Below, one piece after another: positions 1,246-15,314 of a stretch of DNA of 17,976 nt. Made by a program: the position numbers and the translations under genes. The notes under the pieces are model-generated. The model was not told the origin of the DNA, did not search any database, and worked only from the letters and a program-made list of their open reading frames with translations. Within the stretch, counting starts at the first letter, position 1; every line of letters begins with the position of its first letter. Origin of the DNA: Escherichia coli (GTDB lineage: Bacteria > Pseudomonadota > Gammaproteobacteria > Enterobacterales > Enterobacteriaceae); assembly GCF_003334385.1 (NCBI RefSeq), contig NZ_QOWN01000062.1. One strand, given 5' to 3'.

Positions 1246-1414
1246 TATCGCGTCCTCAACAATGAATTTTGTGATGCAGTGCCTGGTGCCTCCAGGTGAC
1301 GTTAACCAGTTAACAATTAACGTCGGATACAGAGAATCCACCCATAACACTGTTTTTGGTTTTAACTGTTCCGCGTGCGCTTAGCCGTATTCACCGCATC
1401 ACAAAATTCACTTT

Positions 1415-1472
1415 AAAAAGGGCGGCAGAGCAGTCACGGAGTAAAACTGATACCGCCAAACGTCACCAGAAA
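1415..1472 (-). ncRNA. dicF: DicF small RNA (ftsZ-targeting antisense sRNA) with its 3' hairpin and U-run
   Basis: Reverse complement of 1415-1472 reads TTTCTGGTGACGTTTGGCGGTATCAGTTTTACTCCGTGACTGCTCTGCCGCCCTTTTT, matching DicF as I recall it, ending in a GC-rich hairpin (GGCGG...CCGCC) plus T-run. Lies between the ydfC position and dicB as in the dicB operon. Confidence 0.9.
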
Positions 1473-1503
1473 ATTGATAACAGAGGGCGTTGCAGCGGGG
1501 TTG

Positions 1504-1695
1504 TCACTTAAGCGTATGGTCAACCTGACAACCCGGTGTCCTCAACGGGGAAGGAATAACCCCGCCATACTTACCGCCGCGCCATTTTGCGGGTTGCCAC
1601 AACCGGAAGCGCACGGTCGAATTAAATTTAACGACACCGTACAGTGAGACGAACTTCGCCGTGCGCTTTCGTGTTGTGTGCCTGCTTTTAACCAC
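1504..1695 (-). CDS. Small ORF at the ydfC position (63 codons, GTG start); coding status doubtful
   Basis: Track ORF MVKSRHTTRKRTAKF... between the ydfB stop and the DicF 5' end. GC-rich and Arg/Lys-rich; could instead be structured precursor RNA for DicF. Confidence 0.2.
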   Translation of the reverse strand: MVKSRHTTRKRTAKFVSLYGVVKFNSTVRFRLWQPAKWRGGKYGGVIPSPLRTPGCQVDHTLK

Positions 1696-1731
1696 GTCAG
1701 GCGAGGTGGTATCCTTAAAATCACCACAGTT

Positions 1732-2307
1732 TTAAGGATTCATTAAGCAATGTCGCAACCACCAATAAATCCGCTTAAGAACATGAAAATTGATTACTGG
1801 TATAAAGCGCTTACAGTTGTTGGCGCTGCGTTGTTTGTCTTTAATGGAACGTCTTTTTTTGACAGATATCCCGTTGTTCCATTGGGTTTTTTGTCCTCCG
1901 GCATCTTTTTTATTGGTTTGGGGGAGTGGATTAATCACCCTCTCATAGTGAGATTTATTGGTCCTGGAGTTTGGACTCGTGGATATAATCGTTCTTCGTG
2001 CGCACTCGGTATCATCTTCGACATACTTGGTTGTTTCCTGATTGTTACAGGAGTCGTCAAGTTCTTCTGATGTAAAACCGCAAATGGGGCACGTAACGGG
2101 AATTTTGAAAAGCGTTTCTCCGGGTTCCAGAACAAAATTTTCTGCGGTCTGATTTTGCTTCTCATATTTGTGCTCCGCGTCATTGTGAGAGCACATTCTT
2201 ATTCTGAGTGCCTGTTTAAACTCACTGAAGCTGAGAGCTTCTTCGCCTTCGGCAAGGCCTTCGAAGTATTCTTCGTAAGCCTTTTCCATGATTGTGTCGA
2301 AATCCAT
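1732..2307 (-). CDS. ydfB: YdfB-like ORF; the first 42 codons match the short YdfB I remember, but here the frame stays open for 191 codons
   Basis: ATG at 2307-2305 with AGGTGAG Shine-Dalgarno, 1 nt after the ydfA stop. Begins MDFDTIMEKAYEEYFEGLAEGEEALSFSEFKQALRIRMCSHN, then continues DAEHKYEKQ...CPICGF. The C-terminal part is low-complexity and may be a shadow of the antisense ORF at 1750..2070. Confidence 0.4.
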   Translation of the reverse strand: MDFDTIMEKAYEEYFEGLAEGEEALSFSEFKQALRIRMCSHNDAEHKYEKQNQTAENFVLEPGETLFKIPVTCPICGFTSEELDDSCNNQETTKYVEDDTECARRTIISTSPNSRTNKSHYERVINPLPQTNKKDAGGQKTQWNNGISVKKRRSIKDKQRSANNCKRFIPVINFHVLKRIYWWLRHCLMNP

Positions 2308-2308
2308 A

Positions 2309-2464
2309 TCACTCACCTGAGTTTCTTTCCAGCCAGCGACGGGCACCATTTTCGGTTTTAAACGTTTTGCTTTTGGTATACGTCATCGCGGTGAACGTAC
2401 CGTCCTGGTTGGGGAACACGCCACATACCAGAGATTCGCTGTTGCCAAGATCGATAGTATCCAT
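2309..2464 (-). CDS. ydfA: YdfA (51 aa)
   Basis: Internal Met of track ORF 2309..2518 gives MDTIDLGNSESLVCGVFPNQDGTFTAMTYTKSKTFKTENGARRWLERNSGE. GAGGT Shine-Dalgarno upstream of the ATG at 2464-2462. Confidence 0.85.
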   Translation of the reverse strand: MDTIDLGNSESLVCGVFPNQDGTFTAMTYTKSKTFKTENGARRWLERNSGE

Positions 2465-2534
2465 GCTGACCTCATTTCCCCTTAACGCCGGGGTAGCGGA
2501 ACTGTTTGCTGAGAACACCGTGCGGTGTCTTGAT

Positions 2535-2570
2535 GGAGGTAATTTAGTTTTCTCATTATTTTCGTCAAGG
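2535..2570 (-). promoter_or_regulatory. Candidate sigma-70 promoter for the ydfA-dicB operon
   Basis: On the minus strand: TTGACG (rc of 2563-2568), 16-nt spacer, TAAATT (rc of 2541-2546), lying between the dicA-like stop and the ydfA start. Judged by eye only. Confidence 0.35.
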
Positions 2571-2655
2571 TTTTTTGATGAGAAAGCTCAAGTATTGGCG
2601 CAAGATAAAGCCAATACATTGAAATGTAAGGCTTTAAAATTTTGTGAAGGGATGA

Positions 2656-3063
2656 TTATTGATGCTTGTTGCGTTTGCGAGCCTCTAATAGCTCGGTGAA
2701 CAGGCGATTAAAATTCTCAACGCGGGCGCGGAGTTCGCTGAGTTGTGCTTGTTGCTCTGATTTAGGAAGTGCGCGATACAAACGCAGCATCTCTAACTCA
2801 TCTTCCGATAAGTCTAAGGCACTATCGAGTGAAACAGGGGGAGCTGGTGTTTTGTCCTCGTCGCCAAACAGTATCCAAGTTGGTGAACATTGCAATACCT
2901 CGGCGAGGCGATGCAAATTTTGCCCGCGCGGGGCTGTATGGTCACTTTCCCATAATGAAATTGATGAGCCAGATACGCCAGCAGCTTTGCTTAAACCGTT
3001 TTGACTTAAGCCTACCTGCTTACGTCTTTCTCTAATGCGTTGACCTAAAGTTTTCTCGTTCAT
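2656..3063 (-). CDS. dicA: DicA-like HTH (XRE-family) repressor, 135 aa
   Basis: Internal Met of track ORF 2656..3114 gives MNEKTLGQRIRERRKQVGLSQNGLSKAAGVSGSSISLWE...VLQCSPTWILFGDEDK...; the VLQCSPTWILFGDEDK block and C-terminus match DicA as I recall it. Divergent from the Cro-like gene. Confidence 0.85.
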   Translation of the reverse strand: MNEKTLGQRIRERRKQVGLSQNGLSKAAGVSGSSISLWESDHTAPRGQNLHRLAEVLQCSPTWILFGDEDKTPAPPVSLDSALDLSEDELEMLRLYRALPKSEQQAQLSELRARVENFNRLFTELLEARKRNKHQ

Positions 3064-3140
3064 ATTTAGATATCTTAATAACCCTTGACTTGAGATTCCT
3101 TGAGTGATTAGCATTGAGAAAACTCAATATTGGAGGTGCG
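3064..3140. promoter_or_regulatory. Divergent promoter/operator region between the dicA-like and dicC-like genes
   Basis: 77-bp intergenic region with three TTGAG motifs and a perfect palindrome ATTGAGAAAACTCAAT at 3113-3128 overlapping the dicC-like ribosome-binding region. Typical repressor/Cro switch geometry. Confidence 0.45.
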
Positions 3141-3368
3141 ATGTTTAAATCAGACGTAATTAATTTTTACGGTACGAAAGCCAAAGTAGCGAAAGCTGCT
3201 GGCGTTGACCCATCTGCTGTTTCTCAATGGCAAGAGCTGGTTCCTGAAGGTCGCGCGATGCGTCTACAGGAGGCATCTGGCGGCGAGCTTCTGTATGATC
3301 CCAAGGTTTATGACGAATATCGTAAGACGAAGCGGGCGGGGCGGTTGAACAATGAAAATCACTCCTGA
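3141..3368 (+). CDS. dicC: DicC-like (Cro-type) regulator, 75 aa
   Basis: ATG at 3141 with GGAGGTG Shine-Dalgarno. MFKSDVINFYGTKAKVAKAAGVDPSAVSQWQ...EGRAMRLQEASGGELLYDPKVYDEYRKTKRAGRLNNENHS resembles DicC. Divergent from the repressor. Confidence 0.8.
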   Translation: MFKSDVINFYGTKAKVAKAAGVDPSAVSQWQELVPEGRAMRLQEASGGELLYDPKVYDEYRKTKRAGRLNNENHS

Positions 3369-3873
3369 ACAGGCTCGTGAGGCTCTGGATGCCTGGATAT
3401 GTCGACCAGGAATGACACAGGAGCAGGCGACGATATTAATCACTGAAGCATTCTGGGCTTTGAAAGAGCGCCCGAACATCGATGTTCAGCGTGTCACATA
3501 TGAAGGTGGCGCGATTGATCAGCGAGCGCTTGGCGTTAATCGAGTGAAGATATTTGAACGCTGGAAGGCTATCGACACCAGGGATAAGCGTGAAAAGTTC
3601 ACGGCGCTAGTGCCTGCAATTATGGAGGCTATCCGGATTAATGATTTCAGGTTGTATCGTGAAATTACTGACGGAAAAAGCATCACGTGCATGATCGCCG
3701 GGTTAAACAAAGAATATGGCGATGTGGTGGAGTCCGGACTGCTTTTTGCTGATCCTGCCGTAGTGGATCGTGAAACTGACGAACTTATAGAAAAAGCAAT
3801 TGCTTTCAAACTTGCGTATCGACAGCAATACCAACAAAAAGCTGGATGGAATTATGAGCCTTCTTTTTGCTGA
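3352..3873 (+). CDS. Hypothetical 173-aa protein at the CII position (possibly YdaT-like); function not recognised
   Basis: Track ORF; ATG overlaps the dicC-like 3' end by 17 nt, suggesting translational coupling. Family assignment is a guess from gene position. Confidence 0.55.
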   Translation: MKITPEQAREALDAWICRPGMTQEQATILITEAFWALKERPNIDVQRVTYEGGAIDQRALGVNRVKIFERWKAIDTRDKREKFTALVPAIMEAIRINDFRLYREITDGKSITCMIAGLNKEYGDVVESGLLFADPAVVDRETDELIEKAIAFKLAYRQQYQQKAGWNYEPSFC

Positions 3874-4819
3874 ACGCCCACTGGTTATAAACACGCAGCT
3901 GGCAATGAAAATTGGCTTAAACGAAGCCATTGTTTTGCAACAACTGCACTACTGGTTGAGAGATACCAACTCCGGCATGGAATGTGATGGTGTTCGCTGG
4001 ATTTATAACACAACGGAACAATGGCTGGAACAGTTCCCATTCTGGTCAGAGTCAACGTTAAAGCGCGCGTTTGCAAGTCTGAAAACGCTGGGGCTTTTGC
4101 GTTGTGAAAAGCTCAATAAATCAAAGCGCGATATGACCAATTTCTACACGATCAACTATGGGTGCGAGCTTTTAGATGGTGGCAAATTGAGCGAATCCAT
4201 CGGTTCAAAATGCGCCGCTCCATCAGGTCAAAATGACACGATGGAAGAGGTCAAAATGAAACGCTCCATTGGTTCAAAACGACCCAATGTCATCGGGTCA
4301 AAATGGCCTGATGATCTTACAGAGAATACAACAGAGATTACTACAGAGAATAAAAACACTTTTCGTCCGGAAGCTTCGCAACCGGACCCGCAGACGACTG
4401 AACAGGATTTTTTAACCCGGAACTCCGACGCGGTTGTGTTTAGTGCGAAAAAACGCCAGTGGGGTAGCAGGGAGGATTTGGCGTGTGCGCAGTGGATCTG
4501 GGGGCGGATCGTGGGTCTCTACGAACAGGCAGCCAGTGATGATGGCGAGATCATGCGACCAAAAGAGCCTAACTGGACTGCCTGGGCCAATGACGTGCGC
4601 ACAATGCGGATGCTGGATGGCAGAAGCCACAGACAAATTTGCGAAATGTTTGGTCGGGTTCAGCGAGATCCATTCTGGGTAAAAAACATCATGAGCCCGT
4701 CAAAGCTCCGCGAAAAATGGGACGAACTGGTCATCCGCCTGGGACGTTCACCTGTACAGCGTTGTGTTAATCATATTTCTGAACCGGATACAGAAATTCC
4801 GCCTGGTTTCAGAGGATAA
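3854..4819 (+). CDS. Phage replication initiator / replisome-organizer protein (lambda O-like role), 321 aa from the ATG at 3854
   Basis: Track ORF 3800..4819; preferred start at 3854 (MSLLFAERPLVINTQLAMKIGLNEAIVLQQLHYWL, an HTH-like N-terminus). The gene contains five iteron repeats at 4196-4305, as ori-lambda lies inside O. Confidence 0.7.
   Translation: MSLLFAERPLVINTQLAMKIGLNEAIVLQQLHYWLRDTNSGMECDGVRWIYNTTEQWLEQFPFWSESTLKRAFASLKTLGLLRCEKLNKSKRDMTNFYTINYGCELLDGGKLSESIGSKCAAPSGQNDTMEEVKMKRSIGSKRPNVIGSKWPDDLTENTTEITTENKNTFRPEASQPDPQTTEQDFLTRNSDAVVFSAKKRQWGSREDLACAQWIWGRIVGLYEQAASDDGEIMRPKEPNWTAWANDVRTMRMLDGRSHRQICEMFGRVQRDPFWVKNIMSPSKLREKWDELVIRLGRSPVQRCVNHISEPDTEIPPGFRG
4196..4305 (+). repeat. 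Five direct iterons (core GGT(T)CAAAA(T/C)G) at 22-25 bp spacing inside the replication gene; candidate replication origin
   Basis: Core starts at 4202, 4226, 4249, 4271 and 4296, with flanks TCCATCGGTTCAAAATG, TCCATCAGGTCAAAATG, GAGGTCAAAATG, TCCATTGGTTCAAAACG and GTCATCGGGTCAAAATG. Followed at 4320-4356 by three ACAGAGA(A/T)TA repeats in an A-rich stretch. Confidence 0.6.
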
Positions 4820-4859
4820 GTGTTGATTTCAGGTCATGAGGTAATTTTAAGGGGGACTT

Positions 4860-5282
4860 GTGGCAAAAGTTTTTACACAAGAAGAGCGGGAAAAAATTAA
4901 ATGGCAGGTGGTGGAACTCGTGCGCCAGAGCGGCCGTGAGACGTTACGGCAACTGGAAGCTAAAACAGGTGCGACTAGATATCTGATGAGCGTTCTTGCC
5001 AGAGAGCTGGTAGCCAGTGGCGATGTATACAACTCCGGCTACGGGTTATTCCCCTCTGAACAGGCGCGTAAGGACTGGCAAAACGCCCGCAAAAAACTCT
5101 CGAGGGCAAAGGTGAAGAAACCTGCTTTGGTTGATCCGGACCTTATCTGGTCATCACCTGACGGAGAAATACGTCGCTACGACAGTCGCCTAAACATAAT
5201 CTGTCGCGAGTGCCGGAAGAGCGAAGTTATGCAGCGCATACTGGCTTTCTATCAGGGTAATTTTCAGGACGTGGCGCAGTGA
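4860..5282 (+). CDS. Hypothetical 140-aa protein (GTG start), downstream of the replication initiator
   Basis: Track ORF preceded by AAGGGGGA Shine-Dalgarno. Its stop overlaps the GTG start of the following methyltransferase ORF (GTGA). No recognisable motif. Confidence 0.5.
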   Translation: MAKVFTQEEREKIKWQVVELVRQSGRETLRQLEAKTGATRYLMSVLARELVASGDVYNSGYGLFPSEQARKDWQNARKKLSRAKVKKPALVDPDLIWSSPDGEIRRYDSRLNIICRECRKSEVMQRILAFYQGNFQDVAQ

Positions 5283-5725
5283 GTGCACCGGCAACCATTC
5301 TTGATATGTGCTGTGGCAGCCGCATGTTCTGGTTCGATAAGTCTGACGAACGGGCGATATTCAGCGATATCAGAAAAGAAGGATACACATTACGCAATGG
5401 GAGACGCTTGATTATCAGCCCTGACATTATCGCAGATTTTCGTGCATTATCATTTGCAGACGCATCTTTTTCGATGGTTGTATTAGACCCTCCGCATCTT
5501 GAGAGTGTTGGTGATAACGCCTGGATGGGAAAGAAATATGGACGGCTGAATAAAGATGCCTGGCGTGATGATTCGCGACAGAGATTTAAAGAAGCCTTTC
5601 GGGTGTTGAGGCCGCACGGCGTTCTGATTTTTTAATGGAATGAAACGCAAATACCGGTAAGCCAGATTCTGGCACTGACAGACAGAAAACCTGTTATCTG
5701 TCAACGAACAGGGAAAAAACGATAA
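5279..5725 (+). pseudogene. DNA amino-methyltransferase (motif I DMCCGS, motif IV DPPH) interrupted by an in-frame TAA at 5633-5635
   Basis: Track ORF 5279..5635 carries VVLDPPHLE, the D-P-P-[YFWH] catalytic motif of N6A/N4C methyltransferases, and a SAM-binding-like ILDMCCGS. The same frame continues after the TAA for 29 codons (WNETQIPVSQILALTDRKPVICQRTGKKR) to a TAA at 5723-5725. Confidence 0.5.
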
Positions 5726-5897
5726 AACCCACTGGATTATTTTTATGAAAGAGGCATCCAGTGAGTAGATTCGTAAGGCTACAGATACGTATATCTGAAT
5801 AATTAAATTCAGTTCTGTAAATAAAATTTAATCCTTAACCGGATGGATTTCTGCACCCTCAGAACATCAGGAGGCAGCCCGAAAGGGCGGTAGTGAA

Positions 5898-6080
5898 ATG
5901 CGAAAGTTCAAAATTATTATTGAAACGGGAATAGCTGGTGGAGATTTTGAGGATGTATTCGAAGTGGACGATGACGCAACACCTGAGGAAATTCATGACG
6001 GAGCATAAGAAATTTTCTTTAACTACTGCAATTACTCATACCACGAAATAAAAGACGATGAGGAAGAACAAAGTGGCTGA
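5898..6080 (+). pseudogene. Small acidic ORF (36 codons) with an in-frame TAA at 6006-6008 and a 23-codon in-frame continuation
   Basis: MRKFKIIIETGIAGGDFEDVFEVDDDATPEEIHDGA, stop, then EIFFNYCNYSYHEIKDDEEEQSG in the same frame. Manual translation. Confidence 0.3.
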
Positions 6081-6249
6081 TTTTTGTTCAGCTAAATATA
6101 ACATCAGTTTTGAAGAGCGGGATGAACTATTAATGGACTATGGTGAGTTACGCGGTGGAAGTGCTGCTGATGTCGAATCCTAGCGTGATGACTATGAAGC
6201 GGGAAAAACTCCGGTCGAAGCATATTGTGATGAGTGGGGCGATGAATGA
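6058..6249 (+). pseudogene. Small ORF (41 codons) with an in-frame TAG at 6181-6183 and a 21-codon acidic in-frame continuation
   Basis: MRKNKVADFCSAKYNISFEERDELLMDYGELRGGSAADVES, stop, then RDDYEAGKTPVEAYCDEWGDE. The terminal TGA overlaps the ATG of the next ORF (ATGA). Confidence 0.35.
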
Positions 6250-6533
6250 GCGAGATTAATTATCAGGAAGGGCATGAAACGGCGGGGCAAGCAAAACCAG
6301 TGGCATGGCGATATCGCTACGTGAAAAAAGGCGTTACGGACTTTCAGGGGAAGTAGTGGTCTGGTGACTGGAAATATGTACCGAAAAAAGAGGATTGTAA
6401 CGACAGGCCGAACTATCAAATTCAGGCCTTATTCACTGCCTCACCAGTCCCAGTTACATCAGAAGAACTGGTTAAAGCTGTGCACTTTTATGAACAACTA
6501 AAACGCGAAAATCCACCAACATCCGGCAACTAG
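6246..6533 (+). pseudogene. Small ORF (36 codons) with an in-frame TAG at 6354-6356 and a 58-codon in-frame continuation
   Basis: MSEINYQEGHETAGQAKPVAWRYRYVKKGVTDFQGK, stop, then WSGDWKYVPKKEDCNDRPNYQIQALFTASPVPVTSEELVKAVHFYEQLKRENPPTSGN in the same frame. Confidence 0.4.
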
Positions 6534-6787
6534 ATTAATGGATTAACTATGTCGGTTAAACGACCAGCCAACTGAAAAAGCGGAAACCTGATTACAGGTT
6601 GCCAGATAAGGCAATGAGCTACCTGGCGCGGAACGGACTGATAAGTATGGGGAATGTTTTACGATGAACCTTTAGACTAAAGAGTTTGTAACGCTATGTA
6701 AGTGATTTTTTCTGGTTTAGATATTTATATGTCCGGCCAAATTGAGGTGTGTTTAAATGTAATTGCACATTGATTGTAGGAGGAATA

Positions 6788-6967
6788 ATGAAAAACGCAT
6801 TGCAGTTTTTGTTTGTTGCGTTCTGGTTGTTCGCATCATGTATGCCCATCATCTTCACAGCAAGGTATATGGAAAAAGTTGATGTTTTGATATTAATATT
6901 TGGATATATAAATGCCCTTTTTTTAGGGGTGTTCATGGCGGTCATGTGCATTGAATACTGGCGGTAA
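6788..6967 (+). CDS. Small hydrophobic protein, 59 aa, two predicted transmembrane segments
   Basis: ATG at 6788 with AGGAGG at 6778-6783. MKNALQFLFVAFWLFASCMPIIFTARYMEKVDVLILIFGYINALFLGVFMAVMCIEYWR. No antisense gene explains it. Confidence 0.45.
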   Translation: MKNALQFLFVAFWLFASCMPIIFTARYMEKVDVLILIFGYINALFLGVFMAVMCIEYWR

Positions 6968-7301
6968 ATACAGCGAACTCCATTGGTTTAGTTGGATATT
7001 TACTGTGCTGGACAAAAACGGTTTGCGGGGAAATCTTAGTTAAGTAGAATGACTGCGGGTGCTTGAGGCTATCTGCCTCGGGCATGGACACCAACGGCAG
7101 ATAGAGAAAAGCCCCAGTTAACATTACGCGTCCTGCAAGACGCTTAACATTAATCTGAGGCCAATTTCATGCTAGACACATGTAGGTTAGCCTCTTACGT
7201 GCCGAAAGGCACGGAGAAGCAGGCTATTGTTAACACCAAGCTGTAATGTCCCCTTTGAACCATTCTAAAATGTCCCCAGACAATTCTCTGGGGGATTTTT
7301 C

Positions 7302-8615
7302 ATGATCAAAGAGACTGTTACGATGAGTCATAAGGAACTCCACCGACTTCAGATTATTCAGGAACAAGCTGCGGCACGCATTGGCATTTCTATTCGGCAG
7401 GTTAAACGTCTGGTGCAACGGTATAGAAATGAAGGGCCTTCTGGTCTGGTTTCCCACCGACGTGGAAAGCGTCCTAATAATTCCTTTTCTACTGAATTCA
7501 GAGCAACAGTAATTTCACTCCTCAAAGGCCGTTACGCTGATTTTGGACCTACGTTTGCGTGCGAAAAATTGCGCGAGATACACGGTTTATCTTTATCCGT
7601 TGAAACTCTCAGAAAGTGGATGATAGAAGAGGGGTTATGGCGTGAACGCCGTCGTAAAATTGCCCGTATATATCAACGCCGCATGCGACGACCATCTTAC
7701 GGTGAACTGATCCAGATTGATGGCTCACCTCATGACTGGTTTGAAAATCGAGGCCCCAGATGTACACTGATCGTTTTCATTGATGATGCCACCAGTGCGT
7801 TGATGGCGTTGCGTTTTGTGCCTGCTGAAACAACCCGGGCTTACATGGAAACCCTCCGGGGTTACCTTAATGATCATGGCGTACCGCTCGCTCTCTACTC
7901 TGATAGACACAGTATATTCAGGGTAAATAACCCAGAGCGGGAAGGTGAGCTGACCCAGTTCACTCGTGCGATAAAGACACTGGGCATCGAGCCAATCCAT
8001 GCCAACAGCCCGCAGGCAAAAGGGCGGGTAGAGCGCGCCAATCAGACACTACAGGACAGGCTGGTCAAAGAAATGCGGCTTCAGAATATCAGTGATATTG
8101 AAACAGCAAATGCATGGTTGCCGACCTTTATTGAAGCCTATAACAACCGGTTCGCTACGTCGCCTCGTACTACTGATAATGCTCATCTTGATGTGCACCA
8201 TTCTGAAGAGGAACTGGGTTATATCTTCAGCCTACAGGCGAAGCGCGTTCTGTCTAAAAATCTCACTTTCCAGTACAAAAGCAGTGCGTTTCAGGTACGC
8301 AGTGAGGGCCGGGGATATCGACTTAGGCATTCGGTTGTTACTGTATGCGAGAACTTTGACGGTGAAATTAACGTTCTGTATGACGGGAAAGCGCTGGGCT
8401 GGGAAAAGTATGTTGATGGCCCGGAGCCTATACCACTGGATGATGAAAAGAGTGTCCATGAACGAGTGGATAATGCCCGTATTGATTTACGCTCAAAATA
8501 CTATGTTAAACCTAAAGCTGACCATCCCTGGCTTACGCGCCGAACGCAAAGTCATCAGCAAGTTAAGCCCCCGAAGTTACCTAAAAAGAAGCCTGATCCC
8601 GATAAAAAAGATTGA
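7302..8615 (+). CDS. IS-element DDE transposase (integrase-core/rve type with N-terminal HTH), 437 aa; family uncertain (IS481-like or ISNCY-like)
   Basis: Track ORF with HTH-like N-terminus (IGISIRQVKRLVQRY) and candidate DDE residues in IQIDGSPHDW, IVFIDDATSA and GRVERANQTLQD. Ends of the element could not be defined. Confidence 0.8.
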   Translation: MIKETVTMSHKELHRLQIIQEQAAARIGISIRQVKRLVQRYRNEGPSGLVSHRRGKRPNNSFSTEFRATVISLLKGRYADFGPTFACEKLREIHGLSLSVETLRKWMIEEGLWRERRRKIARIYQRRMRRPSYGELIQIDGSPHDWFENRGPRCTLIVFIDDATSALMALRFVPAETTRAYMETLRGYLNDHGVPLALYSDRHSIFRVNNPEREGELTQFTRAIKTLGIEPIHANSPQAKGRVERANQTLQDRLVKEMRLQNISDIETANAWLPTFIEAYNNRFATSPRTTDNAHLDVHHSEEELGYIFSLQAKRVLSKNLTFQYKSSAFQVRSEGRGYRLRHSVVTVCENFDGEINVLYDGKALGWEKYVDGPEPIPLDDEKSVHERVDNARIDLRSKYYVKPKADHPWLTRRTQSHQQVKPPKLPKKKPDPDKKD

Positions 8616-9018
8616 AACCAAGATCGATTCGGTTGAGTGCATATCCATTCATAGGGTAGATTCTTAAGTCGCGTTTCTGGTGTTCATTTTCGGGTGGTTT
8701 GTTACTTGTTTTACCGGGGATATGCCAGAAACGCGCTGAGTCAGTCTGGGCGGTGCGCGTAATGAGGCGTTATGGTAAATAGCCTATGCTAATGTCCGCT
8801 AAGAGCAAGAAGCGGAAGTTGGCAGTTTTGTGGACTGTCCCCACAAAAGTGACTACAGAAATAGTTGCAATTCATAATTGATCATGGGTTGTCAGTTAAA
8901 CTCGTGGCGATTTAAATAGACTAATTGGGAGTGCGTCCATTACTTATATCTTGTAATGTTAACTATCAGAAATGATACAAAGATAATATGTCTTTAAAGA
9001 AAAGGCTGATGGCGAAAA

Positions 9019-9037
9019 GTGGCCCGATGAGGGCCAC
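9019..9037 (-). terminator. Candidate intrinsic terminator downstream of flxA
   Basis: Hairpin GTGGCCC-GATGA-GGGCCAC just 3' of the flxA stop; on the minus strand it is followed by a short T-rich tract (TTTTCGCC). Confidence 0.35.
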
Positions 9038-9051
9038 AATACGGCTGTCAC

Positions 9052-9384
9052 TTAGACGTAAATATCAATGGTGCCAGCGGTATTTGTATCGTCTTTTTTC
9101 TCTTCTTTTTTATCAGGCTGAACTGTCGCGTCTTCATTCTTTTTCTCTGCCTGCTGCCTTAACAACTGCTCCAGTTGAGCCCAGAGGCTTTCAATTTGCT
9201 TCTGTACCAATGCAGCCATTTCTTTTTTCTGCTGTGTCGTCATCCCCTCTTCCGATGAGATTTTCCCAAGCTTTTCAGTCAGCACCTGAATTTGTCTTGT
9301 GATTTTGGCTATTTCTGATGTTCCTTCCGGGGCGGAGTTGTTTGAAATAACGGTTGAGGTATTTCCCTGAATTGTGACAGACAT
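9052..9384 (-). CDS. flxA: FlxA (110 aa)
   Basis: Track ORF MSVTIQGNTSTVISNNSAPEGTSEIAKITRQIQVLTEKLG... matches FlxA as I recall it. AAGGAG Shine-Dalgarno and a sigma-28 promoter lie upstream. Confidence 0.85.
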   Translation of the reverse strand: MSVTIQGNTSTVISNNSAPEGTSEIAKITRQIQVLTEKLGKISSEEGMTTQQKKEMAALVQKQIESLWAQLEQLLRQQAEKKNEDATVQPDKKEEKKDDTNTAGTIDIYV

Positions 9385-9407
9385 AGATTTCTCCTTTTAA
9401 AAAAGCA

Positions 9408-9434
9408 CTATCGGCATGCACAAAAAAATCTTTA
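9408..9434 (-). promoter_or_regulatory. Sigma-28 (FliA) class promoter for flxA
   Basis: Minus strand reads TAAAGATT - 11 nt - GCCGATAG, against the consensus TAAAGTTT-N11-GCCGATAA, about 25 nt upstream of the flxA start. Confidence 0.6.
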
Positions 9435-9586
9435 ATCGTATTTCTTGTGTCATTAATTGTTTGATGTTCAGATTGTTTTCCTCGCGGGCTGGCGCGCCTC
9501 AGAAAGTAAAGCTTGTTGACAGGGGTAAACGTTCGGCAATAATTTTCTGCCGCATGCGGGTGTTGCATAAAACGTGTTACGTTCCT

Positions 9587-9892
9587 TTATCGACAGGTCA
9601 GGTCACCGCTCACCCGCCGACGAGAAAGCAACACTGACATGCTAAAGCAAAAAATAGATGAATAAGTTGAGTTGTGCATATGTAGCCTGACCGTCACAAA
9701 GTATATGGTGTCTGTACCAGTAAGATGATGGCCGGACTCTTTAAAAACGAGCTGACCTGCACAATACAGGATGGACTTAGCAATGGCTGCTCCTGGCACA
9801 AAGCGGACAGTGATCACCGTTCTTACGACTACTTTCTGACTTCCTTCGTGACTTGCCCTAAGCATGTTGTAGTGCGATACTTGTAATGACAT
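9587..9892 (-). CDS. ORF at the ydfV position (101 codons); coding status uncertain
   Basis: Track ORF MSLQVSHYNMLRASHEG... between flxA and relB; same length as ydfV in K-12 as I recall. No motif support. Confidence 0.2.
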   Translation of the reverse strand: MSLQVSHYNMLRASHEGSQKVVVRTVITVRFVPGAAIAKSILYCAGQLVFKESGHHLTGTDTIYFVTVRLHMHNSTYSSIFCFSMSVLLSRRRVSGDLTCR

Positions 9893-9905
9893 TTGTAATT
9901 ACAAG
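9881..9905 (+). promoter_or_regulatory. relO operator of the relBE promoter
   Basis: TTGTAATGACATTTGTAATTACAAG, with inverted TTGTAAT/ATTACAA repeats, directly upstream of the relB Shine-Dalgarno (GAGGTG) and ATG at 9917. Confidence 0.7.
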
Positions 9906-9916
9906 AGGTGTAAGAC

Positions 9917-10156
9917 ATGGGTAGCATTAACCTGCGTATTGACGATGAACTTAAAGCGCGTTCTTACGCCGCGCTTGAAAAAATGGGTGTAACTCCTTCT
10001 GAAGCGCTTCGTCTCATGCTCGAGTATATCGCTGACAATGAACGCTTGCCGTTCAAACAGACACTCCTGAGTGATGAAGATGCTGAACTTGTGGAGATAG
10101 TGAAAGAACGGCTTCGTAATCCTAAGCCAGTACGTGTGACGCTGGATGAACTCTGA
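9917..10156 (+). CDS. relB: RelB antitoxin (79 aa)
   Basis: MGSINLRIDDELKARSYAALEKMGVTPSEALRLMLEYIADNERLPFKQTLLSDEDAELVEIVKERLRNPKPVRVTLDEL; near-identical to RelB as I recall it. Confidence 0.92.
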   Translation: MGSINLRIDDELKARSYAALEKMGVTPSEALRLMLEYIADNERLPFKQTLLSDEDAELVEIVKERLRNPKPVRVTLDEL

Positions 10157-10443
10157 TGGCGTATTTTCTGGATTTTGACGAGCGGGCACTAAAGGAATGG
10201 CGAAAGCTGGGCTCGACGGTACGTGAACAGTTGAAAAAGAAGCTGGTTGAAGTACTTGAGTCACCCCGGATTGAAGCAAACAAGCTCCGTGGTATGCCTG
10301 ATTGTTACAAGATTAAGCTCCGGTCTTCAGGCTATCGCCTTGTATACCAGGTTATAGACGAGAAAGTTGTCGTTTTCGTGATTTCTGTTGGGAAAAGAGA
10401 ACGCTCGGAAGTATATAGCGAGGCGGTCAAACGCATTCTCTGA
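10156..10443 (+). CDS. relE: RelE mRNA-interferase toxin (95 aa)
   Basis: MAYFLDFDERALKEWRKLGSTVREQLKKKLVEVLESPRIEANKLRGMPDCYKIKLRSSGYRLVYQVIDEKVVVFVISVGKRERSEVYSEAVKRIL. ATG overlaps the relB stop (ATGA). Confidence 0.92.
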   Translation: MAYFLDFDERALKEWRKLGSTVREQLKKKLVEVLESPRIEANKLRGMPDCYKIKLRSSGYRLVYQVIDEKVVVFVISVGKRERSEVYSEAVKRIL

Positions 10444-10514
10444 ACCAAAGCATGACATCTCTGTTTCGCACCGAAGGTGACACTTCTGCTTTGCGTTGAC
10501 AGGAGAAGCAGGCT

Positions 10515-10670
10515 ATGAAGCAGCAAAAGGCGATGTTAATCGCCCTGATCGTCATCTGTTTAACCGTCATAGTGACGGCACTGGTAACGAGGAAAGACCT
10601 CTGCGAGGTACGAATCCGAACCGGCCAGACGGAGGTCGCTGTCTTCACAGCTTACGAACCTGAGGAGTAA
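10515..10670 (+). CDS. hokD: HokD (RelF) Hok-family membrane toxin, 51 aa
   Basis: Manual translation MKQQKAMLIALIVICLTVIVTALVTRKDLCEVRIRTGQTEVAVFTAYEPEE; GGAGAAG Shine-Dalgarno. Under 60 aa, so absent from the ORF track. Confidence 0.9.
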   Translation: MKQQKAMLIALIVICLTVIVTALVTRKDLCEVRIRTGQTEVAVFTAYEPEE

Positions 10671-10735
10671 GAGACCCGGCGGGGGAGAAATCCCTCGCCA
10701 CCTCTGATGTGGCAGGCATCCTCAACGCACCCGCA

Positions 10736-10768
10736 CTTAACCCGCTTCGGCGGGTTTTTGTTTTTATT
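10736..10768 (+). terminator. Intrinsic terminator after relBE-hokD
   Basis: CCCGC-TTCG-GCGGG hairpin followed by TTTTTGTTTTTATTTT. Confidence 0.6.
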
Positions 10769-10886
10769 TTCAACGCGTTTGAAGTTCTGGACGGTGCCGG
10801 AATAGAATCAAAAATACTTAAGTAGCGCGCAGGGATAAGAGGGATGGTCCCTTAAAGGGGAGAGCTAATTATCCGGAAGGATTCTG

Positions 10887-11192
10887 ATGATGAACATCGA
10901 AGAACTGCGTAAAATTTTTTGTGAAGATGGCCTCTATGCTGTGTGCGTTGAAAATGGAAATCTTGTTAGTCATTACCGCATTATGTGTTTGCGAAAGAAT
11001 GGGGCTGCGTTAATTAATTTTGTGGATGCTCGGGTCACGGACGGATTTATCTTGCGCGAAGGTGAGTTTGTCACTTCATTACAGGCATTGAAAGAGATCG
11101 GAATAAAAGCTGGCTTTTCTGCTTTTCTGGTAACAAAGTGCTGGCAGGAAGAAGCATACGCGGAAGCGCAATTGAGGAAGGTGACGAGATAA
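10887..11192 (+). CDS. rem: Rem-like small protein
   Basis: Track ORF MMNIEELRKIFCEDGLYAVCVENGNLVSHYRIMCLRKNGAALINFVDARVTDGFILREGEF... resembles Rem of Qin. The C-terminus may differ in length from K-12. Confidence 0.65.
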   Translation: MMNIEELRKIFCEDGLYAVCVENGNLVSHYRIMCLRKNGAALINFVDARVTDGFILREGEFVTSLQALKEIGIKAGFSAFLVTKCWQEEAYAEAQLRKVTR

Positions 11193-11826: not shown

Positions 11827-12126
11827 AAAAATTCCTTAATACTGATAACTTGGCGCACTATACACACGTTCCTGAAGAAAGCTATAGTTTTTTGATGGGG
11901 TTGAAGATGGCTGGATGTCTAAAATAAACATTGCTTCATATGTTCAACTATGCGTTAATGATTGCGTCGGTTTGAAGAACAGACGATATACGAAGTAGTT
12001 TACTAAAGCAGTTCTCATTTCAGGTGTTATTCACTTATTCCTTCTTTGAGTCTCTCCAATTAAGTACGAAGTCGTTTCTGTTATGCAAACCATTTATGCC
12101 GAAAGGCTCAAGTTAAGGAATGTAGA

Positions 12127-12342
12127 ATGTCAAATAAAATGACTGGTTTAGTAAAATGGTTTAACGCTGATAAAGGTTTCGGCTTTATTTCTCCTGTTGA
12201 TGGTAGTAAAGATGTGTTTGTGCATTTTTCTGCGATTCAGAATGATAATTATCGAACCTTATTTGAAGGTCAAAAGGTTACCTTCTCTATAGAGAGTGGT
12301 GCTAAAGGTCCTGCAGCAGCAAATGTCATCATTACTGATTAA
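12127..12342 (+). CDS. cspB: Cold-shock protein CspB (71 aa)
   Basis: [71 protein letters not shown]. Long 5' UTR containing a TGCCGAAAGGC box, as in the csp family. Confidence 0.9.
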
Positions 12343-12624
12343 AATTCATCGCTCGTCTGTATACGATAACGAAGAAGGCTGATGCCTGAGTAGAGATACG
12401 GACAGAGTAGTGAATATTGGATCTCTTTAATAAAAAGTAAGGAGGTCCAATACATGAAACAATGGCCAGCATATTTGGCAAAATCTTAATCAGGAAAAGT
12501 ATGCTAACCATTGTGGTGAAGTGCAGGTTTGCTGCATGAATAGTTTTACAGCAGAAGCTAACTGCTGGCATGGCAAAACAAAGTGCGTAAGTGGATGACT
12601 CCCACAAAAAGCACCACAATCTCA

Positions 12625-14651: not shown

Positions 14652-15013
14652 GGTAATATTAAATCGGAACATTTACATCGCGGAATGTAAAATTTAAATA
14701 AAAAGGACTCTTCCATGAGCCAAAATTCCTGAAATCTTAAGGGTAAGATAAAAGGTCTTAATCAGAATGACACGTTTTATTAATAAATAAAGCTATTCTT
14801 TCATTGCTGTGTTTTTCTTTACAAAAGTAATCCTTGCTATGGGTGGTTAATCATGCGTTAATGGTGTTCTGGTTTGTTACAAATTTATCTGAAGCAGTCA
14901 TTGTTATAATTTTATTATTTGTACCTCTTGAGATTTCCTTGTTGGTTTTTCTCTCTGATATTTTTTTTCGGACCATTCTGCCCAAGGGCTAATTTCTTCA
15001 AAAGGTAATAATT

Positions 15014-15226
15014 ATGTCTAACAAAATGACTGGTTTAGTGAAATGGTTTAACCCTGAAAAAGGTTTTGGTTTCATCACGCCGAAAGATGGCAGCAAAGAT
15101 GTGTTTGTCCATTTCTCAGCAATTCAGAGCAACGATTTCAAAACATTAACTGAGAATCAGGAAGTTGAATTTGGTATTGAGAACGGACCTAAAGGTCCTG
15201 CCGCTGTTCATGTAGTGGCGCTTTGA
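15014..15226 (+). CDS. cspI: Cold-shock protein CspI (70 aa)
   Basis: [70 protein letters not shown]. Confidence 0.88.
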
Positions 15227-15314
15227 GGTAGACAATATTACAAACCATATTCACTTTAGATGCCCGTGTTGTCATGGTTCCCAGTATAGAACATCATCTT
15301 TTGATGTTTCTGAC

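Follow-up and report, generated by a model that had tools for sequence, protein, structure and literature searches.

The stretch of DNA described here, positions 6968 to 7300, lies in a window of 17,976 nucleotides (nt) of Escherichia coli (contig NZ_QOWN01000062.1 of assembly GCF_003334385.1), the window being the whole stretch that was analysed. The window is a Qin-type lambdoid prophage, and the stretch, which precedes a transposase gene, contains the 5' leader of the mRNA of hokD, the toxin gene of the hokD/sokD locus, followed by the left end of a transposon. An earlier note, made from the sequence, had described structured non-coding DNA at this place and had proposed that it could be the left end of an insertion sequence (IS), a remnant csp leader cut off by the insertion, or a small RNA. 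Hundreds of E. coli chromosomes carry DNA that is at least 99% identical to the full window. For identical DNA in strains ATCC 8739 and SCU-104, the RefSeq gene order is dicB-dicA-dicC-ydaT-...-DUF977-methyltransferase, then an unannotated gap, and after the gap ISNCY transposase-ydfW-flxA-ydfV-relB-relE-hokD-rem. RefSeq places no feature under 6968-7300 in this identical DNA; the leader is without annotation here because the toxin gene lies 3.3 kb away. The following features were located in the leader, with SD standing for Shine-Dalgarno sequence and ORF for open reading frame.

7023-7050, plus strand: putative hok promoter, with -35 TTGCGG at 7023-7028, a 16-nt spacer and -10 TAGAAT at 7045-7050; the +1 lies six nt further on
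7057-7227, plus strand: 5' leader of the hokD mRNA (Rfam RF01794, alignment with strain E15, covariation)
7057, plus strand: hok mRNA +1 (mapped from plasmid R1)
7057-7068, plus strand: tac (mapped from R1)
7069-7077 and 7096-7104, plus strand: 9-bp stem, CTATCTGCC with GGCAGATAG (read from the sequence)
7109-7115, plus strand: ucb, the anti-SD element (mapped from R1)
7118-7126 and 7144-7152: 9-bp direct repeats TTAACATTA, which flank the hairpin GCGTC-CTGCAA-GACGC (read from the sequence)
7157-7161, plus strand: mok SD, GAGGC (mapped from R1)
7157-7194, plus strand: Sok-target hairpin (mapped from R1)
7169-7246, plus strand: truncated mok frame of 25 codons (from the ORF list; a GAGG SD lies 8 nt upstream, and the mok start of R1 is at the homologous position)
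7198-7213, plus strand: GAAA tetraloop hairpin CGTGCC-GAAA-GGCACG, directly ahead of the hok SD
7213-7216, plus strand: hok SD, GGAG
7226-7227, plus strand: the 'AT' of the hokD ATG, where the leader ends

In the Rfam scan, the stretch matched RF01794 ('sok') strongly and from end to end: model positions 1-157 align with 7057-7228 of the plus strand, with E = 4e-23 and a score of 104.1 bits, where the gathering threshold is 59. The RF01794 consensus has a start resembling the 5' end of the hok mRNA of plasmid R1 and closes with an SD and an AUG, and therefore it is the hok-sense leader that was matched, with the Sok antisense lying within it. The elements of the leader were placed by means of the plasmid R1 numbering in PMC9841398 and PMC1635323. 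The RNA of 7057-7228 on the plus strand folds at -64.5 kcal/mol (z = -4.66), and none of 200 shuffled sequences was as stable. When seven diverse homologous leaders were folded, the 9-bp stem, the tac/ucb stem, the base of the Sok-target hairpin and the tetraloop hairpin were all kept, and 9 of the 30 consensus pairs showed compensatory double changes, in what is a small sample of related sequences. The stem, the repeats and the tetraloop hairpin are those on which the earlier note had drawn, and each was found where it had placed them. Its remark that the stretch lacks a credible ORF also holds, since the ORF list contains no long frame and the sole meaningful one is the truncated mok frame, which opens at the ATG at 7169, reads across the junction with the transposon and stops after 25 codons in the transposon end.

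The stretch is found in thousands of genomes, so that neither a lack of Rfam hits nor a confinement to this strain, both named in the earlier note as grounds for refutation, applies. Of 5,426 complete E. coli genomes, more than 4,300 carry a leader homologous to it, with a median of 2 and a maximum of 11 leaders per genome, many of them 90-98% identical, and 511 genomes retain the stretch itself at 99% identity or more. In intact loci, the annotated hokD coding sequence starts exactly where the similarity to the window ends, at 7227, within the ATG. The closest comparison is the intact hokD locus of strain E15 (L002 6998-7188), whose leader is 98.4% identical to that of the window, and here too the homology stops at 7227. 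Segment 7037-7227 is contiguous with hokD in such uninterrupted, IS-free loci. These results show that the leader is a hok leader; the RNA element belongs to a known family and is an ordinary textbook hok/sok leader. We consider it very likely that 7023-7227 represents the 5' regulatory half of a type I toxin-antitoxin locus, the hokD/sokD of the Qin prophage, orphaned when a transposon cut it from its toxin and left behind, most likely as a relic. The suspicion in the earlier note of a remnant leader severed by an insertion was correct in its concept, but the gene is hokD/sokD and not csp.

The insertion that separates the two halves of the locus is delimited by the following features, where IRL stands for the inverted repeat on the left and IRR for that on the right.

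7213-7227: left copy of the target-site duplication, GGAGAAGCAGGCTAT (a perfect repeat of 10502-10516; single in E15)
7228-7300, plus strand: transposon left end, consisting of IRL, subterminal repeat and hairpin with T-run
7228-7255, plus strand: IRL of 28 bp, TGTTAACACC...
7259-7277, plus strand: second subterminal repeat (found by direct repeat analysis)
7273-7294, plus strand: terminator-like hairpin with a T-run to 7300, overlapping the transposase SD just before the transposase ATG
10474-10501, minus strand: IRR, ...GCGTTGACA, and, about 25 bp further in, a second ATGTC motif
10502-10516: right copy of the target-site duplication, which provides the SD and ATG of hokD

As compared with strain E15, in which leader, hokD and rem are uninterrupted and represent the empty site, the window has 3,274 extra bases at 7228-10501. 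The perfect 15-bp direct repeat GGAGAAGCAGGCTAT stands on both sides of the insert, at 7213-7227 and 10502-10516, and its counterpart in E15, at 7173-7188, is a single copy. The insertion point lies between the hok SD and the last base, G, of the start codon. The insert starts with TGTTAACACCAAGCTGTAATGTCCCCTT and its end, read as the reverse complement, is TGTCAACGCAAAGCAGAAGTGTCACCTT; 21 of 28 positions match (P of about 4e-8). It begins with TGT and ends with ACA, and each end carries a pair of (A/G)TGTC motifs, one at offset 19 and the other at 43-44, spaced 24-25 bp apart. A right end was also sought at 8700-8900, where the homology to the transposase ends, but no convincing inverted repeat was found there (score 16), and the convincing IRR is that at 10474-10501, which places the right end of the unit 58 bp past relE. 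In other replicons the IRR terminus adjoins differing flanks. Elements of the IS1202 family are described as having TGT ends and a second internal binding site, and one subgroup makes duplications of 15-17 bp (PMC10132070; bioRxiv 10.1101/2022.12.17.520857); judged by its sequence, the insert is an ISEsa1-type transposon of this family, 3,274 bp in length.

Beyond the insert lies the other half of the hokD locus.

10515-10765, plus strand: displaced 3' half (ORF list, duplex, in-silico fold)
10515-10670, plus strand: hokD ORF
10720-10732, plus strand: fbi (extended complement 10711-10732)
10741-10765, plus strand: terminator

The toxin ORF is not directly 3' of the leader but beyond the 3,274-bp insertion, which makes the leader half a locus. 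The tac element at 7057-7068 and fbi at 10720-10732 form a duplex of -27.4 kcal/mol, although the two partners are 3.6 kb apart in this genome. When the element and one copy of the repeat were removed in silico, the minimum free energy structure of the excised mRNA paired 7057-7068 with 10720-10732, a tac/fbi closure that is the hallmark of hok mRNAs. This complementarity across the insertion, and the closure of the message after excision, indicate that the leader is the front half of one split hok/sok locus. The displaced hokD retains an SD and an ATG because of the target-site duplication. It would now be read as the third gene from the relBE promoter inside the transposon, without mok and Sok control.

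The transposase and the cargo of the transposon are arranged as follows, the cargo being taken from the RefSeq annotation of identical DNA and the ORFs.

7302-8615, plus strand: IS1202-family (ISEsa1) DDE transposase of 437 amino acids (NCBIfam NF033594, Pfam helix-turn-helix and rve domains, BLASTP, RefSeq)
8821-10473: transposon cargo
9052-9384, minus strand: flxA
9587-9892, minus strand: ydfV
9917-10156, plus strand: relB
10156-10443, plus strand: relE

The transposase matched NF033594 with 456 bits (cutoff 250), and closely related copies carry the RefSeq label 'IS1202-like element ISEsa1 family transposase'. By BLASTP, 437 residues correspond to the 446 of the plasmid-borne WP_004196353.1, the sole difference being a deletion of nine amino acids. 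It stems from an in-frame 27-bp deletion in the 7362-7367 region (codons 21-22), which removes SINRHITQE from the first helix-turn-helix, and therefore the copy of the transposon in the window is probably immobile. The K-12 gene 'ydfW' (b1567; L004 4175-4324) is no more than the 3' end of the ORF for the ISEsa1 transposase, its final 49 codons, corresponding to window 8466-8615.

The minus strand of the leader has its own structure, and the part of the earlier note that spoke of a small RNA fits a predicted Sok antisense gene embedded there.

7184-7212, minus strand: predicted Sok promoter, with -10 TAACCT (reverse complement of 7184-7189), a 17-nt spacer and -35 GTGCCT (reverse complement of 7207-7212)
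about 7102-7177, minus strand: predicted gene of the Sok antisense RNA, some 76 nt long (ends placed with the Sok primers of R1 given in PMC1635323, carried over through the Rfam alignment)

The predicted Sok RNA has a single-stranded 5' tail, a long hairpin made of the TTAACATTA repeats and the inner GCGTC/GACGC hairpin, and a U-rich tail. In the minus-strand fold, G-U pairs join the two repeats to one another, which gives an extended Sok stem-loop, and 7180-7098 folds at -30.7 kcal/mol (z = -5.22). Both strands are therefore folded far better than shuffled sequences, in line with the structure suspected in the earlier note. The Sok promoter was placed by positional homology to that of R1, TTGCGC-17-TATCCT, in agreement with PMC1635323. 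The Sok ends, the promoter positions, transcription at the present day, a loss of function and a recognition of the hok initiation region by the transposase are all inferred, whereas the identity of the leader, the junctions, the duplication, the empty site, the tac/fbi complementarity and the recurrence at other hok loci are shown.

The leader of the window differs from that of E15 by three substitutions, at 7052, 7087 and 7212. Position 7212 is C in the window and A in the six other leaders compared, and on the Sok strand this changes the -35 hexamer from TTGCCT to GTGCCT, a T-to-G change at the first position. The same C also completes the perfect 6-bp CGTGCC/GGCACG stem, so that this stem is partly derived in the present allele. 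Among split loci in prophage contigs, seven have the insertion with A, five the insertion with C, and twelve the insertion with C and the 27-bp transposase deletion, the last being the class of the window. Because C and A are both found among split loci, the change at 7212 arose after the insertion.

The orphan leader, to which no toxin remains for control, is probably a decaying relic. The -35 mutation followed the insertion, and in K-12 the leader, the IRL and most of the transposase have been lost by a deletion (window 3631 to 8431). The relE-IRR-hokD junction is present in 1,165 genomes, and 511 retain the stretch. These three observations are the basis of the relic view. The K-12 deletion joins ydfX, a ydaT-like 5' fragment, to the transposase tail ydfW. 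The main rival to the relic view is that the stretch still works, the orphan Sok, and maybe the leader RNA as a decoy, acting in trans on hokD-like mRNAs that other lambdoid prophages or plasmids bring to the same cell; this would be an anti-addiction or cross-immunity module. We regard it as unlikely. The predicted Sok hairpin, tail and -10 box are intact, the stability of the antisense fold (z = -5.2) is in its favor, there are up to 11 homologous leaders per genome, many of them closely similar, and the 511 genomes keep the stretch nearly unchanged. On the other hand, the derived change strikes the first position of the Sok -35, K-12 and over half of the genomes with the junction are without the stretch, and ATCC 8739 has only one matching place under megablast. 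The high identity among the carriers, moreover, may reflect recent common descent.

The same insertion was found at other hok loci. An ISEsa1-type element is present at the same position in at least three further hok loci, each with its own matching duplication of 15-16 bp. In a Phytobacter plasmid (L014), the unit is 12,843 bp long with GGAGAAGTCAGCTAT on both sides, and it carries ncrYCBA, chrBA, other genes and relBE. In the Enterobacter asburiae plasmid pEnt261 (L016), the unit is 3,307 bp with GGAGAAGAAGGCCAT on both sides. In these two plasmids the orientation is the same as well. The fourth event, at a hokA-like locus, has the duplication TGGAGGGGCTATGATG, and its flanks are split over two loci of one genome (L058 and L026). 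The duplications of the four events are thus 15, 15, 15 and 16 bp. One-sided junctions in hok initiation regions were found in a Klebsiella plasmid, Pseudocitrobacter and Kluyvera (L015, L020 and L021), and Rfam sok hits adjoin the IRL in L005, L014 and L020. The reconstructed empty site of the Phytobacter plasmid matched uninterrupted plasmid hok loci at 99.3% over 400/400 nt. The hok initiation region carries the GCCGAAAGGC hairpin and GGAG, and in all hok cases the duplication begins directly after ...GCAA/GCAC, which closes the small hairpin. This suggests that recognition takes place in the hairpin/SD segment, and the transposase would then recognise the hok initiation region. An exact-pattern scan for the IRL in species-representative genomes returned only 5 loci and is sparse.

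Some side observations concern these copies. The 12.8-kb form (L014 716-13558, on Phytobacter plasmid pMRY16-398_1, and also L015 and L013) bears ncrABCY and chrBA, and in L014 these nickel (ncr) and chromate (chr) resistance genes lie between transposase and relBE; the unit sits in a hok locus beside psiB-psiA on an IncF-type plasmid. It has in common with the window unit only 7228-8820 and 9790-10501. Near-identical copies in several genera and sites would imply recent mobility. In IMG genome 2534681836, which contains L058 and L026, two transposon copies have swapped flanks: the hokA-like leader is joined via the element to hokD, and the hokA-like ORF stands behind another IRR, which implies an inversion or other rearrangement between the copies. 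A 5.5-kb contig labelled 'MAG: Collinsella sp.' (L019) has the E. coli leader, the left junction, the 3,274-bp unit, the same 15-bp duplication and the hokD start; this is almost certainly binning contamination. One-sided junctions of the same element outside hok occur at L017 3765, in L018 and at L011/L012 4252, and in L023 a 3,301-bp unit (1345-4645) is flanked by a 6-bp repeat only (CGCCTT).

From these observations we favor, on balance, the view that the ISEsa1-relBE transposon is a 'hok hunter': it would recognise the hairpin and SD upstream of hok starts, insert one way with a staggered cut of 15-16 bp, and capture the toxin as the last gene of its own relBE operon, stripped of control by Sok and mok. 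The K-12 relBEF would then be the scar of such a capture, orphan leaders would be a class of relics, and the catalogued ISEsa1 would be delimited wrongly.

It is improbable that the transposon has no preference for hok and that one ancestral insertion was spread between hok loci by homologous recombination. The hok loci are similar enough to recombine, the copies in L058 and L026 do recombine, and in L006, L045 and L065 the hokD duplication stands beside a leader that diverges further upstream. However, recombination would bring the duplication of the donor along, whereas in the four events the 15-16 bp at the two ends match within a locus, differ between loci, and match the local hok allele. 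In addition, only about 3 nt in 1.6 kb distinguish the elements, as against more than 15% of positions in the flanks. Recombination is disfavored because the bases adjoining the element differ between loci yet match within each.

The reading of the whole of 6968-7300 as the left end and regulatory region of an insertion sequence, one of the proposals of the earlier note, is very improbable. It is right for 7228-7300, where IRL and subterminal repeat are followed by a hairpin masking the SD of the transposase, but not for 6968-7227, which is refuted as an IS end by the empty site in E15; the contiguity with hokD in IS-free loci is against it, and other copies of the element have different sequence to the left of TGTTAAC. 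A remnant csp 5' untranslated region cut by the insertion has next to no probability, because, apart from the 11-nt TGCCGAAAGGC that the stretch (7200-7210) has in common with the cspB leader (12097-12107), the stretch aligns end to end with hok leaders and has no Rfam cspA hit, and TGCCGAAAGGC is a small hairpin whose stem covaries in hok leaders (GCC/GGC, GCA/UGC). The Rfam cspA model (RF01766) had no hit in 6700-9000 even at E = 1, its only hits being at 11966-12358 and 14868-15253. The sharing of the box had been pointed out in the earlier note and is real: the window has two exact copies and one with one mismatch, against 0.42 expected by chance. In the cspB leader, the box corresponds to the csp 'upstream box'. 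In hok and cspB leaders alike, it forms a GAAA-tetraloop hairpin a few bases ahead of the SD. Since the stem covaries in hok leaders, the identity of the box looks convergent.

Several points weigh against the interpretation of the stretch as the relic of a targeted insertion. A consensus promoter scan of 6900-7400 found no site at threshold, and so the hok and Sok promoter calls come from homology only. The putative hok promoter at 7023-7050 fits the start of the Rfam model, and its hexamers are common to the related leader L065; by a count against its hexamers, the R1 Sok promoter would miss the threshold of the scan as well. Only one of the three substitutions against E15 falls in a recognised element, and the relic call is drawn from comparison of sequences. 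The leaders of L016 and L021 are below the Rfam threshold, and that of L016 is interrupted by ISKpn8. The preference is not absolute, since four flanks lie outside hok: those of L017 and L018 at the left end, that of L011/L012 at the right end, and L023. Finally, the ISfinder entry of 1,609 bp and an IRR-like sequence near 1.62 kb in the 12.8-kb form make the relation of the 1.6-kb 'IS' to the longer units uncertain.

The course of events at this locus can be proposed as follows. In the ancestral state, as in E15, a weak promoter would produce the hok mRNA, and pairing of the 5' tac with the 3' fbi would hold the message closed. After trimming of the 3' end the leader would refold, with tac pairing to ucb and the mok SD exposed, and translation of mok would drive that of hok. 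The Sok antisense, made from the opposite strand of the leader, would bind the target hairpin and block this mok-driven translation. The 3,274-bp ISEsa1-type transposon, carrying flxA, ydfV and relBE, then split the locus at a point between the hok SD and the last base of the start codon, duplicating GGAGAAGCAGGCTAT and moving the hokD ORF, fbi and the terminator 3.3 kb downstream, where hokD became the third gene of the relBE operon in the classical relBEF arrangement. The leftover leader might give at most a short RNA with a 25-codon mok stub, ending at the transposon hairpin and T-run (7273-7300), and possibly a second product, a Sok RNA without its cis target. After the insertion the predicted Sok -35 gained its T-to-G change.

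The remainder of the window fits its prophage context. The Rfam scan gave three features expected in a Qin prophage.

1420-1471, minus strand: DicF
11966-12358, plus strand: cspB thermoregulator leader (cspA-type)
14868-15253, plus strand: cspI thermoregulator leader (cspA-type)

The tRNA scan of the window found no genes. Just before the hok promoter there is an unannotated ORF of 62 codons (6779-6967, plus strand), very hydrophobic (MKNALQFLFVAFWLF...), with a strong AGGAGG 5 nt upstream; a PHROG search found no family for this ORF or for ydfV. At 11126/11127 the window lacks 2,109 bp that are present in strain SCU-104 (L003 11628-13735). This deletion takes the last codons of rem, one hypothetical gene, ydfU and most of ydfT, which encodes a Q-type antiterminator, and therefore the late-gene activator of the prophage is gone in this strain.

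The window keeps both junctions of the event that made relB-relE-hokD (relBEF), which K-12 has partly deleted, and the junctions show that relBE came as cargo of an IS1202-family transposon with a 15-bp duplication. The element has struck at least four different hok loci at the same nucleotide position, and these loci are found on chromosomes as well as plasmids and in several genera. If the interpretation as a targeted insertion is true, this would be the first target for the non-dif branch of IS1202, the boundaries of the catalogued ISEsa1 would be corrected, it would be explained why a type I toxin stands behind a type II toxin-antitoxin pair, and orphan sok/hok leaders would serve as markers of such insertions. 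The 12.8-kb form would also move nickel and chromate resistance genes. As far as the cited accounts go, hokD lies 71 nt after relE and is co-transcribed with it (Gotfredsen & Gerdes 1998, as cited in PMC5120126), and relBE, of plasmid origin, was integrated into hokD (Ramisetty & Santhosh 2016, as cited in PMC6379469). No conserved target was reported for the groups with long or no duplications (Harmer et al. 2023, PMC10132070), and ISEsa1 is not mentioned in the main text of Siguier et al. 2022. In the literature that was searched, we found no description of the transposon ends, of the duplication, or of recurrent hok targeting by ISEsa1-relBE, although one may exist. The integration of relBE at hokD is thus known in outline, while the exact mechanism and the target specificity look new.

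Compared with hok/sok (parB) of plasmid R1, the window has the same 5' start (GGGUGCUUGAGG versus GGCGCUUGAGG in R1), the tac/ucb stem, the mok SD and start in the target hairpin, the hairpin before the hok SD, a predicted antisense Sok promoter that overlaps this hairpin, and the tac/fbi complementarity. Unlike in R1, 3,274 bp of inserted DNA hold the hok ORF and fbi apart from the leader, mok is cut to 25 codons and the Sok -35 is mutated; the Sok stem-loop is also about 16 nt longer than in the Rfam consensus. Chromosomal hok loci are reportedly inactivated by insertion sequences, hokA by IS150 and hokC and hokE by IS186. The present insertion is like these in that an IS separates regulatory elements and disables the normal control of hok, but the others reportedly fall 3' of the toxin's reading frame and take away fbi, whereas this one is at the start codon, with a 15-bp duplication, its own promoter and toxin-antitoxin pair, and a recurrent nucleotide.

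The hokD (relF) of K-12 relBEF is the same locus, and window 8431-11126 is 100% identical to K-12, but K-12 has lost the leader-side junction, so that the event could not be reconstructed there, while the window keeps both. In the ISfinder table, ISEsa1 is listed as 1,609 bp with inverted repeats of 15/22 and no duplication (Harmer et al. 2023, PMC10132070). The element in the window has the same left end, and its transposase, of 439 or 446 amino acids according to the start codon, is 100% identical except for the deletion of nine amino acids. However, the duplications found here enclose units of 3.3 kb and 12.8 kb, the duplications of 15-16 bp contradict the entry, and the listed boundary at 1,609 bp would fall about 11 bp before the 3.3-kb and 12.8-kb forms diverge. 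Elements of the ISAjo2/ISAba32 type, which target dif/pdif sites (PMC10132070; bioRxiv 10.1101/2022.12.17.520857), resemble this transposon in the transposase family, the TGT/ACA ends, the second internal site near each end and the habit of inserting in one orientation, a set distance away from a short conserved sequence. They make duplications of 5-6 bp by XerC sites, whereas the element described here makes duplications of 15-16 bp at the hok SD-ATG and carries cargo.

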